Positions 22,495-29,726 of a stretch of DNA of 32,000 nt are shown one piece after another. The position numbers and the translations under genes were made by a program. The notes under the pieces were generated by a model. That model was not told the DNA's origin. It saw only the letters and a list, made by a program, of their open reading frames with translations, and ran no database searches. Origin of the DNA: Cystobacter fuscus (lineage in GTDB: Bacteria > Myxococcota > Myxococcia > Myxococcales > Myxococcaceae); NCBI RefSeq assembly GCF_044360685.1, contig NZ_CP043491.1:3916026-3948025 (forward strand), given 5' to 3'. Within the stretch, counting starts at the first letter, position 1; each line of letters opens with the position of its first letter.

Positions 22495-22568
22495 CCAGGC
22501 ACTTGAGCAGCTCCGGCCCGGGCAGCTCGTCCCTGCCTCCAGGCACTACCCGCGCGGGCCCGTTGTGC
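22495..22568 (-). pseudogene. 74-bp orphan fragment of the DUF4388-domain coding region (copy of 28040-28113)
   Basis: Hand alignment gives 68/74 identical bases in the same orientation at an offset of 5545 bp. The minus strand translates to *HNGPARVVPGGRDELPGPELLKCL, against HNGPARVVRGGMDELPGPELFKCL (residues 539-562) in the intact gene. An in-frame TAG lies immediately upstream, and homology is lost abruptly on both sides. Confidence 0.85.
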
Positions 22569-22621
22569 TAGATTTACGCTTACGGCGTTCGTTTCCCGGG
22601 CACTTGTGTAGGCTCCGCGCA

Positions 22622-22635
22622 CAGGCGATCGCCTG
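22622..22635. promoter_or_regulatory. 14-bp perfect palindrome CAGGCGATCGCCTG upstream of the cyclase/STAND gene
   Basis: Read directly from the sequence. It ends 65 nt upstream of ATG 22701. Confidence 0.3.
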
Positions 22636-26975: not shown

Positions 26976-27774
26976 GAATGACTCCCAAGCGTGGCATGAC
27001 ACGTGTGGGCTTGATGGAGAAAGCCCATTCGTATACGGTCCCCTGATCCAGTCCCGAGTATGGGTGGGTTGGTGGGTAACGAGGCCAATTGGGTATCTCA
27101 TCGATATTCATACATGGGAATTTGAAGTCATAGACGGCCTGCGCACGGAGCGGATCTCCCTGATGAATCACGACATCGGGTTTGACTGAGCCCTTCAACT
27201 CACCCGAATTGCCCGACTCATCCAGTGCCTGCTCCTCCTCGCGGCTCACCTGTTTCCAGCGATTCTGACGCGAGTCGTAGCGGTAGCGTGGTTCCAGACT
27301 GAATCCTCCCGGACGCAGTTTGCTCAGTCGCTCCTCCACGCACTCGAGCGCCTCTTCATGCATCTCCGTTCCCAACTGCATGGCCCATGTCATCCCCTTG
27401 CTTCTCGCGTTCTTCGCCCATTGCTTGCACTCGTCGGCAGTGGGGGTCAAACTGGCGAAGTCCCCCTCGTGCCGGAGAAGGACTTCCGAACGGGCGATGT
27501 CCGCGCATTCTGACAACGTGCGCTCGATGTCGTTTCTCGTCGGAACATCGAGCGCTACTTTCAGGACGGCCGTCGCCGAAGCGATTTCCTTGCCGTAGAG
27601 GGCGACGCACCCCGAGAGGCTGTGCCGACAGGCCGCCGAGGGCGAGTCGAAGCTGTAGCGGAAGGAATCGCTCCTGCCCGGTGACATCGCACACGCCGGG
27701 AGGAGAACGACGAGAGCCCACGCGGCGGCCCTGTTCGAATTGTCTGTGCTTCGCGATTCGCGTTTATTGTTCAC
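26968..27774 (-). CDS. lipoprotein toxin with C-terminal PD-(D/E)xK nuclease-like domain (SitA-like polymorphic toxin candidate)
   Basis: The GTG at 27774 overlaps the upstream TGA (GTGA). Signal peptide MNNKRESRSTDNSNRAAAWALVVLLPAC, with a lipobox-like LPAC (Cys28, +2 Ala). The nuclease signature is a helix with acidic residues (TEMHEEALECVEE), then KPD(199-200)VVIH...VYD(216)FK(218)FP, which is PD...DxK. GC of lines 27001 and 27061 is 55% and 48%. Confidence 0.72.
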   Translation of the reverse strand: MNNKRESRSTDNSNRAAAWALVVLLPACAMSPGRSDSFRYSFDSPSAACRHSLSGCVALYGKEIASATAVLKVALDVPTRNDIERTLSECADIARSEVLLRHEGDFASLTPTADECKQWAKNARSKGMTWAMQLGTEMHEEALECVEERLSKLRPGGFSLEPRYRYDSRQNRWKQVSREEEQALDESGNSGELKGSVKPDVVIHQGDPLRAQAVYDFKFPCMNIDEIPNWPRYPPTHPYSGLDQGTVYEWAFSIKPTRVMPRLGVIHE

Positions 27775-29726
27775 ACCGTGGGCACGTACACCGAGGTCCT
27801 GCGAGGGACAATGCGCTGGGCCAGGGACTCGAGTTCCAGATCCAACTGGGGCACGTCCAGGAGCAGCGAGTCCGGATCGTAGCGGAAGTCGGCCTGGGTG
27901 AAGCCCAGCAGCGTCTGCAGGGCCGGCTCGCCGCTCTGTCCCGCCGCGGAGGCGAAGACGACCCGGCCCTTTTCCAGGTGCAGGAAGCCTTCATGGGCGT
28001 GGTACTTGAGGTGGAGCCGCCCCGACTTCTTGCCCCCGCCCAGGCACTTGAACAGCTCCGGTCCGGGCAGCTCGTCCATGCCTCCGCGCACCACCCGCGC
28101 GGGCCCGTTGTGCCGAATGCGATCCTCGTACAGCGTCTTCAGCGTCCGGGCCGCCTCGGTCAGCGCCGTGGGGGGCAGCACCGCCGTCGCCCCGCACATC
28201 ATCAACCGCTCGCGCAGGCCCGGGTCCGGATCCCCGAGCACCACCAGGGGCAGGCCCGCGTGCTCCGCCGAGGCGCGCACCGCCTGCAGCAGGGCCACCA
28301 CCTCGTCGATGCCGAACTTCAGCCCCACCACCAGCACGTCGCACTCCTGATGCACCAGCGCGTCGTACGCCCCGTCCAGCAGCGACAGCGCATACGCCAC
28401 CAGTCCCTGCTTCTGCACGGCCTCGAGCAGCCCCGTCCGCGTGCCCTGCTCGGGCTCCACGATGAAGATCTGCCGGCCGTCGTTGACGAGCCTCTGCCGC
28501 AGCAACTCGCCGCTCTGCACCTGCGTGACGATGTTCGCCACCAATGGATCGTACAGCTTCCCGGCGTTCTCCTTCAGGTGCTCGATCGCCTTGGCCTTGC
28601 TGTGCAGCTTGCCGAGGGCATTGGCCGGGTTCTTCGTCAGCTCCAGGTAGCTGTCCACCGCCGCGAGGATTCGCGCGCCCAGGGTGATGTCGTCGCCCTT
28701 GGCGCCCTGGGGCGTGCCCGAGCCGTCATAGGCCTCGTAGAGCTGCGCGAGCATGGTGTTCACCTGCACCGGCAGGTTCACCGTCTCGAAGATCTTGGTG
28801 GGGACCCGGCAGTAGCGCTTCGCCTCGGCCATCCACTCGGGATTGACCGCGTTGCTCGCCAGGCAGAAATGCCGCTCGGCGGGCTTGCCCAGGTCATGCA
28901 GCAGGCCGGCGATGCTCACCGCCGTCACGTCCTTGGGCGCCATGCCCAGGCGTCTGGCCACCACCGCAGCCTGGCGCGCGAGCTGCGCCGAGTGCCCCCG
29001 GTGGTGCTTGTGATCGCGCTCCATCATCGACACCAGGAGGTTCAAGGTCTCGATGTAGTCGCCGTCCGACACGGTGCCGCGCGAGGCCAGGAGCGCATCC
29101 CCCCGGGTGCCCGCGCGCGTCTGCGTGCCCGGACGCTGCAGCCGGTTGCGGGTCTCCGAGTCGAGCCGGAGCTGGAGGCTCGCCTTGGGCGCCGTCCCGG
29201 TGGTGCTCTCGAAGGCGGAGGCCATGGCGTTGACGTCCGCGCGCATGTGGCCGCCCAGCTCCAGCGACGCGAAGGCCGTGGGGTCTCCGTAGTAGTGCTT
29301 GCGGATGGCCGCGGCGATGGAGCTGCGCAGGCCCACGTACGCGTAGACCTCGGACATGCCCGTCACCAGGGCGATCTCGTCCATCAACTTCTTGTTCTGC
29401 GGCTCGGCCGCCACCACCGACAGGAGCTTGCGCTCCGGATCGATGGCCAGCGGAAGCACGTTCTGCGCCTCCGCCAGCCGCACGGGCACCTTGTCCAGCA
29501 CCTCGGTGGCGATGCGCGCCTTGGCCAGCTTCTCCGCCGAGACGAAGCGGGTCTGGAACTCGGCCGCCAGGAATCGCAGCAACCCCGATTCCTGGAGCAG
29601 GCCGATCTCCACCAGACAATCCCCCAGCCGGTGGCCGGTGATCTTCTGGTGCTCCAGCGCCTTCTGGATGGACTCGCTCGTGACAAGGCCCGCTTCGACG
29701 AGCCGTTCACCCAGTCGCTTCGGCAT
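27771..29726 (-). CDS. signalling protein: tandem-motif MshEN (c-di-GMP-binding) domain, degenerate HD-GYP domain, pseudo-receiver, C-terminal DUF4388
   Basis: 651 aa. MshEN motifs RLGERLVEAGLVTSESIQKALEHQ, spacer KITGH, and RLGDCLVEIGLLQESGLLRFLAAEF. HD motif HHRGHS...GLLHDLGK. The HHE..DG.GYP block is degenerate (QLYEAYDGSGTPQG). The REC-like region IFIVEPE...DVLVVGLKF has Gly where the phospho-Asp is expected. DUF4388-like block: ELFKCLGGGKKSGRLHLKYHAHEGFLHLEKGRVVFA...GEPALQTLLGFTQADFRY. Confidence 0.88.
   Translation of the reverse strand: MPKRLGERLVEAGLVTSESIQKALEHQKITGHRLGDCLVEIGLLQESGLLRFLAAEFQTRFVSAEKLAKARIATEVLDKVPVRLAEAQNVLPLAIDPERKLLSVVAAEPQNKKLMDEIALVTGMSEVYAYVGLRSSIAAAIRKHYYGDPTAFASLELGGHMRADVNAMASAFESTTGTAPKASLQLRLDSETRNRLQRPGTQTRAGTRGDALLASRGTVSDGDYIETLNLLVSMMERDHKHHRGHSAQLARQAAVVARRLGMAPKDVTAVSIAGLLHDLGKPAERHFCLASNAVNPEWMAEAKRYCRVPTKIFETVNLPVQVNTMLAQLYEAYDGSGTPQGAKGDDITLGARILAAVDSYLELTKNPANALGKLHSKAKAIEHLKENAGKLYDPLVANIVTQVQSGELLRQRLVNDGRQIFIVEPEQGTRTGLLEAVQKQGLVAYALSLLDGAYDALVHQECDVLVVGLKFGIDEVVALLQAVRASAEHAGLPLVVLGDPDPGLRERLMMCGATAVLPPTALTEAARTLKTLYEDRIRHNGPARVVRGGMDELPGPELFKCLGGGKKSGRLHLKYHAHEGFLHLEKGRVVFASAAGQSGEPALQTLLGFTQADFRYDPDSLLLDVPQLDLELESLAQRIVPRRTSVYVPTV

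Follow-up and report, generated by a model that had tools for sequence, protein, structure and literature searches.

Integrase-mediated genomic islands at gene 3′ ends leave direct repeats through att duplication. Other gene ends are displaced by incoming modules: C-terminal displacement and orphan toxin C-terminal (toxin-CT)/immunity modules are described for rhs and cdiA loci (Jackson et al. 2009, as cited in PMC5361080), and for the effector-immunity modules of Vibrio cholerae's type VI secretion system (T6SS) a sequential displacement through illegitimate recombination facilitated by homology was put forward (Kirchberger et al. 2017, PMC5361080). In myxobacteria, the SitA/SitI lipoprotein toxin-immunity cassettes are spread by horizontal transfer (PMC5562445, PMC8546572), and the family-defining escort domain of SitA, which precedes the toxin domain, spans ~375 amino acids (aa) (PMC8546572). 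SitA toxins are delivered by outer-membrane exchange that depends on TraAB. Here we examine a site in a 32,000-nucleotide (nt) stretch of Cystobacter fuscus DNA (the window, to which all positions refer as a whole), where an MshEN-HD-DUF4388 signalling gene (the DUF4388 gene) and a convergent TatD-family gene enclose several units of cargo, and where two pieces of the DUF4388 gene recur as direct repeats. The locus is a further instance of a known evolutionary process, and no new molecular system. We are confident that both repeats are genuine, non-functional recombination scars, each a stranded piece of the DUF4388 gene's 3′ end, and cargo has very likely been added stepwise at this one hotspot, with both repeats as the resulting scars. 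The flanking genes and the two orphan copies are as follows.

20370-21143, plus strand: TatD-family gene (PF01026), conserved flank, convergent with the DUF4388 gene
27771-29726, minus strand: MshEN + HD_5 + DUF4388/PatA_N signalling gene (Pfam), conserved flank and source of segments B and D
22491-22574, minus strand: B′, non-coding orphan from the DUF4388 gene, where it corresponds to 28036-28119 (codons ~537-564)
26017-26049, minus strand: D′, remnant of a displaced gene 3′ end, 33 nt, equivalent to 27864-27896

An earlier reading made from the letters alone (the sequence-only reading) had picked out both repeats and proposed a self-comparison as a check; both are recovered as direct repeats by computation. 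The outer pair joins 22491-22568 to segment B of the gene, 28036-28113 (78 nt, 71/78 identical, 91%; BLASTN E = 8e-24), and the inner pair joins 26017-26049 to segment D, 27864-27896 (33 nt, 31/33 identical, 94%; E = 3e-7). B′ becomes 6 nt longer, reaching 22574, if compared with alleles of the type found in the metagenomic locus L027 and in Archangium. No further significant copy of the final 530 nt of the gene was detected by BLASTN in window positions 13001-32000. As had been claimed, the reading frame of the gene is preserved in both orphan copies, in-frame stops lie ahead of B′, and the protein similarity breaks off sharply at both edges of each copy; the gene calls of that reading likewise agree with the Pfam-based content, which between D′ and the DUF4388 gene and between B′ and D′ comprises the following cargo.

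22701-26009, plus strand: cyclase-STAND cargo gene with zinc ribbon, guanylate cyclase, AAA_16 and TPR (Pfam)
26061-26975, minus strand (open reading frame (ORF) 26061-27101): TsiV-family immunity gene, 304 aa (PF11876, E = 2.5e-50)
26968-27774, minus strand: lipoprotein toxin gene, 268 aa, whose GTG start overlaps the stop of the DUF4388 gene

The history of the inner pair is read from a comparison with the members of the cyclase cluster in four other genomes, C. fuscus CP043492, C. fuscus DSM 2262, C. fuscus NCWS (locus L001) and C. ferrugineus (locus L022), and with L027 from the toxin cluster. In C. fuscus CP043492 the order is TatD, cyclase, 9 nt and the stop of the DUF4388 gene, without toxin and TsiV. 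Such an allele, with the cyclase directly after the gene, had been predicted, and it places the gene end just past the cyclase stop, where the pre-insertion end had been expected; the same 9-nt spacer also occurs in the cassette-bearing NCWS. In C. ferrugineus the cyclase is followed by 48 nt, a 291-nt gene orphan, TatD 3′ fragments (20915-20959 and 21077-21143), the TsiV-toxin pair, a 43-nt TatD fragment, a 283-aa gene, a 23-nt TatD fragment and finally the DUF4388 gene. The 291-nt orphan corresponds to 27771-28061 of the window; it is 95-98% identical in this sister species, and 286 of its 291 positions match the gene copy of its own genome. C. fuscus DSM 2262 retains 102 nt of the orphan (27771-27872) together with 15 nt of the TatD fragment, the window retains the 33 nt of D′ (27864-27896), and NCWS and L027 retain zero gene orphan and the tip of the TatD fragment only. 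D′ is collinear with L022 11451-11483, within the 291-nt orphan of C. ferrugineus, and each orphan resembles the gene copy of its own genome more than any other. All toxin-bearing strains moreover share one junction, GTGTGA/GCCCGGC/TsiV stop (TCA). The graded series and this common junction together show D′, judged from the aligned alleles, to be the leftover, after two deletions, of a 291-nt duplication made when the toxin/TsiV segment was added.

The claim that the toxin/immunity cassette brought a replacement gene 3′ end is borne out by the displaced 291- and 102-nt orphans, and its size has to be corrected to 291 nt, from the 33 + 95 nt first proposed. The part of that claim which made the last ~95 nt of the gene foreign is refuted: orthologues of the DUF4388 gene stand at 14 loci in Cystobacter, Archangium and Vitiosangium, the C-terminal tail is conserved up to the stop codon in 14 of the 14, and the tail in the window is therefore native.

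The gene 3′ end is not the only source of such remnants. TatD 3′ fragments bracket the cargo units as well, so that both core genes leave orphans, a point missed by the sequence-only reading; two lie in the window.

27700-27737, plus strand: orphan TatD 3′ fragment, matching ~21095-21129, 38 nt (z = 6.4 vs shuffles)
26050-26060, plus strand: terminal bases of a TatD 3′ fragment with the shared 7-nt spacer before the TsiV stop, from the five-locus comparison and alone not significant

At the place equivalent to 27700-27737, C. ferrugineus carries TatD 21101-21143, 43 nt up to the stop codon, at 88% identity (E = 2e-9), and fragments of 112, 43 and 23 nt lie between the cargo units of that species. 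In L027 a 52-nt TatD fragment stands left of the cyclase unit (z = 8.4). The nested-insertion model of the sequence-only reading is thus sustained in its inner pair and incomplete as a whole, since it overlooked TatD-side orphans such as 27700-27737 and the process is two-sided.

The antisense strand of the fragment at 27700-27737 encodes part of the toxin signal peptide (NRAAAWALVV...). A similar signal peptide occurs in homologues elsewhere, so the cassette may have joined TatD via chance similarity. The overlap raised the suspicion that the signal peptide is spurious, which we rejected on the invariance of the lipobox Cys in homologues. The start of the toxin gene differs by strain: it is the overlapping GTG here and TTG in DSM 2262, and none is obvious in C. 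ferrugineus (regions compared: window 27700-27774, L020 13129-13260 and L022 13397-13460). The GTG of the window follows a 68-nt deletion relative to DSM 2262.

The outer pair has a different distribution. B′ is found only in this strain and is missing from the five other cyclase-bearing loci examined. In C. ferrugineus no B′ remnant was found, the unrelated 64-nt spacer at that place giving p ~0.5 against B and B′, and an apparent match in L027 was rejected, being in fact the TatD fragment with z = 8.4. In the window B′ forms the right end of a strain-specific 1.43-kilobase (kb) segment (21142-22569), and the alignment with C. ferrugineus resumes from 22570. The segment carries a two-gene cargo, referred to as X.

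21883-22239, minus strand: small118, low-G+C gene of 118 aa, first gene of cargo X (frame signal from G+C at third codon positions)
21830-21879, no strand: inverted repeat/hairpin just past the small118 stop, 25-nt arms 0 nt apart, a probable terminator
21226-21774, minus strand: Cys-rich gene of ~182 aa, second gene of the strain-specific cargo X (tblastn 48% identity, E = 5e-35, with the 129-aa neighbour of small118 homologues as query)

Three features place B′ within imported DNA. Over the last 420 nt of TatD, all differences unique to the window (5/5) fall within the final 58 nt, for which the chance under an even spread is ~5e-5 by our arithmetic. Between the point where the cyclase block begins and ~24850, the window differs from CP043492 and DSM 2262 by ~6%; beyond that point the figure is 2.4-3%, and in the flanks it is 2-4.5%. 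Finally, B′ has ancestral bases at 3 sites where the sequenced Cystobacter genes differ. Going by these divergence patterns, a ~3.8-kb tract (about 21085-24850) entered the strain by ordinary homologous recombination from a donor lineage ~6% divergent, and it comprised the TatD tip, the two-gene cargo, B′ and the 5′ part of the cyclase (~2.15 kb). The donor lineage already had TatD, cargo, B′ and cyclase. The outer copy is a genuine gene fragment, as claimed, whereas its link to the insertion of the cyclase is unproven, there being no B′ in the five other cyclase-bearing loci; the order of events first proposed for the outer pair is plausible but unproven.

How B′ was first made can be read in more than one way. 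That B′ is missing from the five other loci with a cyclase speaks for the addition of the small cargo, with a gene fragment, beside the cyclase. It is a serious possibility, falling somewhat short of an even chance, that B′ came with the small118 cargo, which would have been placed next to a cyclase already present, on the side facing TatD, anchored in TatD, joined illegitimately at a GAT microhomology and carrying a piece of the donor's gene at its far end. Consistent with such a co-arrival, the strain-specific segment spans from the TatD stop to the exact end of B′, the similarity of C. ferrugineus restarts at AGATTT, which overlaps the final bases of B′, the TatD tip beside the cargo is divergent, and a single gain is the most parsimonious account across the six loci. 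Against it, B′ is a mid-domain piece (28036-28119) and not a gene end, so that the donor gene must have been truncated or 265 nt deleted later, and the divergent tract runs 2.1 kb into the cyclase, which makes the last transfer a plain homologous recombination that is uninformative on the first junction.

If instead the possible tip of a TatD fragment beside B′ is given weight, it favours a cyclase added to a site that already held the small cargo. The fully nested history built on this, which we regard as doubtful, has the cyclase unit recombining at ~28113-28119 in an ancestor bearing small118, thereby leaving B′, with D′ following later and the other lineages losing B′ and its cargo. B′ indeed lies directly left of an apparent TatD fragment end before the cyclase, in the same order as at the proven C. 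ferrugineus junction, its ancestral bases suit an old orphan, and the tract's donor lineage carried X, B′ and cyclase in that order. However, the TatD-like stretch right of B′ is weak (p = 0.035), B′ and the small118 cargo are missing from the five other cyclase-bearing loci, the corresponding place holds an unrelated 64 nt in C. ferrugineus and a TatD fragment only in L027, and B′ and its cargo would have had to be lost, or the alleles replaced, several times independently.

A regulatory role is very improbable. Both fragments lie on the sense strand of the cyclase and bracket its coding region, and B′ (in a possible cyclase 5′ leader) and D′ (immediately after the cyclase stop) might on that account be antisense elements against the DUF4388 mRNA that couple two signalling genes. 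However, four other Cystobacter genomes have the same cyclase without B′, their orphans in the D′ region measure 291, 102 or 0 nt in a graded decay as in neutral DNA, and there is neither an Rfam match nor a promoter-like site upstream; with fragments unconserved between strains, we rejected an antisense or RNA regulator. The probability that the matches are chance, or plain domain conservation among DUF4388 paralogues, is negligible even though HNGPAR and QADFRYDPD, the motifs best conserved in the domain, fall within B and D, given the E values above, non-coding fragments with stops and sharp edges, the Cystobacter-specific bases in B′ and, refuting it outright for D′, the collinear orphan in the sister species.

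The scars belong to a site that is variably filled among relatives. TatD adjoins the DUF4388 gene in 12 loci. In eight Archangium/Vitiosangium genomes the site is empty, the DUF4388 and convergent TatD stop codons being 3-64 nt apart, often with a hairpin between them. With these eight empty alleles stand at least five different fillings, and the suggestion of a recurrent cargo hotspot is well founded, as is the expected presence/absence polymorphism, which appears as empty, cyclase-only and cassette-bearing alleles. The low-G+C islet to which that suggestion was tied is seen at 21.8-22.4 kb, and a second low-G+C stretch lies at 26.4-27.4 kb. Among the fillings in other loci are an NB-ARC STAND protein (L002), two unknown proteins (L006), a PhyH and a TPR-CHAT protein (L007) and a larger rearrangement (L012).

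Locus L012 (Archangium gephyra PVMSAZ) also carries a frameshift in the DUF4388 gene near codon 489 (11473-11478), and within 10 kb downstream no TatD is present; TonB-receptor and IucA/IucC siderophore genes stand in its place. Either the allele is rearranged or the assembly is in error.

As to mechanism, an integrase-free, one-sided homologous recombination is likely on the sequences compared. In the ancestral state the DUF4388 gene and TatD would have converged across a gap of 3-64 nt, which in Cystobacter would then have been filled additively. An incoming segment from a relative with other cargo at the site would recombine homologously on one side only, and its other end would be joined illegitimately, or else the fragment would be circularised and then integrated by a single crossover; in the latter variant a linear donor fragment spanning the site (TatD tip, cargo, gene tip) would close, with one crossover in the gene. 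New cargo would thus arrive with its own copy of the end of the flanking gene, and the resident end would be displaced as an orphan. The toxin/TsiV cassette brought the last 291 nt of the gene as well as TatD 3′ fragments, and the displaced 291-nt copy decayed by independent deletions to 102 nt, to the 33 nt of D′, or to nothing, according to strain. B′ would be the same kind of scar at the border of the two-gene cargo (small118 + Cys-rich gene) and the cyclase unit, and we infer this origin for the outer pair.

Several observations fit this course of events. The interval between the two flanking genes shows neither integrase nor transposase in its ORFs or gene calls, and no Pfam domain of an integrase or recombinase. 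In C. ferrugineus the 291 nt are duplicated around the block of TatD fragment, TsiV and toxin, whereas CP043492 has a single copy and no cassette. Two positions that are not neighbours, gene position 28061 and TatD 20915, are fused head-to-head in C. ferrugineus (L022 11648/11651), a join present in no parental arrangement and expected from the closure of a circle or from an illegitimate end-join.

The same comparison also yields points that weigh against stepwise addition with orphan formation as the account of the site. The mechanism is read from end products only, and one-sided illegitimate and Campbell-type integration give the same product. CP043492 is either a naive allele or a revertant that arose by recombination between the 291-nt repeats, the two being indistinguishable. 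That each orphan is closest to the gene copy of its own genome requires independent spread or gene conversion. Orphans of the DUF4388 gene 3′ end were found by neither BLASTN nor TBLASTN in the filled loci L002, L006, L007 and L012, so that with other cargo in Archangium duplication is not obligatory for insertion here. Lastly, a B′ remnant is undetectable in the two loci tested for it, C. ferrugineus and L027, which leaves the origin of B′ beyond reconstruction.

The cargo itself is diverse. The toxin has 370 homologues, mainly from myxobacteria and soil, of 250-290 aa. Among 14 aligned homologues the lipobox Cys28 after a hydrophobic stretch is invariant (14/14), and P199-D200, D216 and K218 are invariant in the homologues as well. 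Toxin matches in Pfam or the PDB were none, and sequence and fold searches gave no confirmation of the fold; from the conserved residues it is probably a lipoprotein with a nuclease of PD-(D/E)xK type, partnered by TsiV. Measured against TsiV/VRR-Nuc-type effector pairs, the immunity protein fits, its TsiV match scoring 171.8 bits against a cut-off of 25, and relatives annotate the protein at 304 aa. In C. ferrugineus the extra 283-aa gene between toxin and DUF4388 gene (L022 13554-14405), with the TatD fragments of 43 and 23 nt around it, ends soon after a P-loop GSGKT and could be a gene of helicase- or NTPase-like type that is truncated.

The small118 protein has only four other clusters among 5.8 billion proteins, all of them metagenomic, and the 129-aa partner follows the small118 homologue wherever the contig continues downstream. 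The Cys-rich gene carries CxxC-type motifs and was not found in NCWS, DSM 2262, CP043492 or C. ferrugineus. No donor was found for this cargo, the four metagenomic clusters lying in unrelated contexts, nor for the cyclase, whose nearest homologue outside Cystobacter is 51% identical. The cyclase region (22667-26009) is a mosaic, with 84-98% identity per 400-nt window to L020, L021, L022 and L001, as against 96-99% in the core gene, a pattern that points either to frequent exchange of alleles or to selection on the STAND protein that is relaxed or diversifying. In NCWS (L001 13700-16999) it is split by apparent frameshifts into products of 422 and 496 aa, and its 3′ end is 84-90% identical to all other strains; this is either a decaying pseudogene or the result of long-read assembly errors. 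In L027, a contig from a soil metagenome with ~92% identity to the window, the cyclase has lost 2.97 kb internally (window 22864-25831). To the left of the TatD fragment there, TatD itself is replaced by genes for a lanthipeptide dehydratase, an RND adaptor and a C39-peptidase ABC transporter, which suggests that another large cargo is stacked at the same site.

On the far side of the DUF4388 gene lies one further conserved-domain gene.

29730-31472, minus strand: OB-fold + HD gene (Pfam)

Its 5′ part (29832-29950) contains imperfect direct repeats at 18-, 27- and 45-nt spacing (CGGCTCGCGCGGCGG...), and the region also shows indels between strains.

Taken as a whole, the alleles of this locus form an unusually complete natural series of integrase-free hotspot growth. 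Its stages are the empty site, one cargo, stacked units whose orphans are still long and fresh, then decayed orphans, then none. Short unexplained repeats near cargo genes become readable as dated junction scars, and both flanking core genes supply them. The predicted lipoprotein-nuclease/TsiV pair is polymorphic between very close Cystobacter strains, which is of interest for myxobacterial kin discrimination, and it sits directly downstream of a signalling gene. The orphans themselves presumably do nothing, barring the long orphan, which might act as a homology arm for the spread or excision of the cassette. We put forward only tentatively, as unlikely on balance, that the flank fragments serve as such arms, by which a cassette enters a naive relative through a double crossover and leaves through repeat recombination. 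Hints in this direction are the closeness of each orphan to the gene copy of its own genome, the slightly higher similarity of the toxin/TsiV block between species (97.1-97.6%) than of the core gene (95.9-96.3%), and the cassette-less CP043492, which over the gene and the greater part of the cyclase is closest to the cassette-bearing NCWS. If true, toxin/immunity and STAND cargo would be effectively mobile without a recombinase, which would explain the growth of hotspots between convergent core genes in myxobacteria.

Set beside integrase-mediated islands, the locus is similar in that direct repeats from a gene 3′ end flank the inserted DNA and the gene stays intact. It differs in that no integrase lies between the flanks, and in that repeat lengths and end points vary by event with no fixed att core: the gene contributes 291 nt and at least 84 nt (B′), and TatD contributes 23, 43, 52 and 112 nt, a variation that fits homologous plus illegitimate recombination better than a fixed att core. 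The resemblance to cdiA and rhs loci, raised by the sequence-only reading, holds for the recombination logic. To the extent that the rhs/cdiA process is outlined in PMC5361080, the incoming module there also brings its own gene 3′ end, the old end is moved downstream in the same orientation and decays, and a toxin/immunity pair lies within the cargo; here the displaced fragments that stand downstream in the same orientation are B′ and D′ in the window, the 291-nt orphan of C. ferrugineus and the 102-nt one of DSM 2262. The resemblance fails for the recipient, which in contrast to the toxin genes of that outline is an MshEN-HD-PATAN signalling gene whose C-terminus is conserved in 14 orthologues, and not a polymorphic toxin. 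Unlike in the systems outlined there, the orphan codes for nothing useful and has no immunity gene of its own behind it (in gene orientation, the cyclase follows D′ and its longer relatives, and the small118 cargo follows B′), the toxin is a separate lipoprotein gene, and the convergent TatD gene leaves orphans too.

With SitA/SitI the locus shares a lipoprotein toxin with a lipobox and an adjacent immunity gene, polymorphic between close strains (PMC5562445, PMC8546572), whereas the whole toxin, at 268 aa, is too short for the ~375-aa escort domain of SitA (PMC8546572) and the immunity protein is of the TsiV family. From the T6SS arrays of V. cholerae it differs in that orphan immunity genes are kept there, possibly under selection, whereas the leftovers here are bystander fragments of core genes on both sides, and in the heterogeneity of its cargo (toxin/immunity, cyclase-STAND and an unknown two-gene unit) (PMC5361080). 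In common with those arrays, it displays integrase-free stacking of cassettes downstream of a conserved anchor, remnants of earlier states, and naive, replaced and stacked alleles among related strains (PMC5361080).

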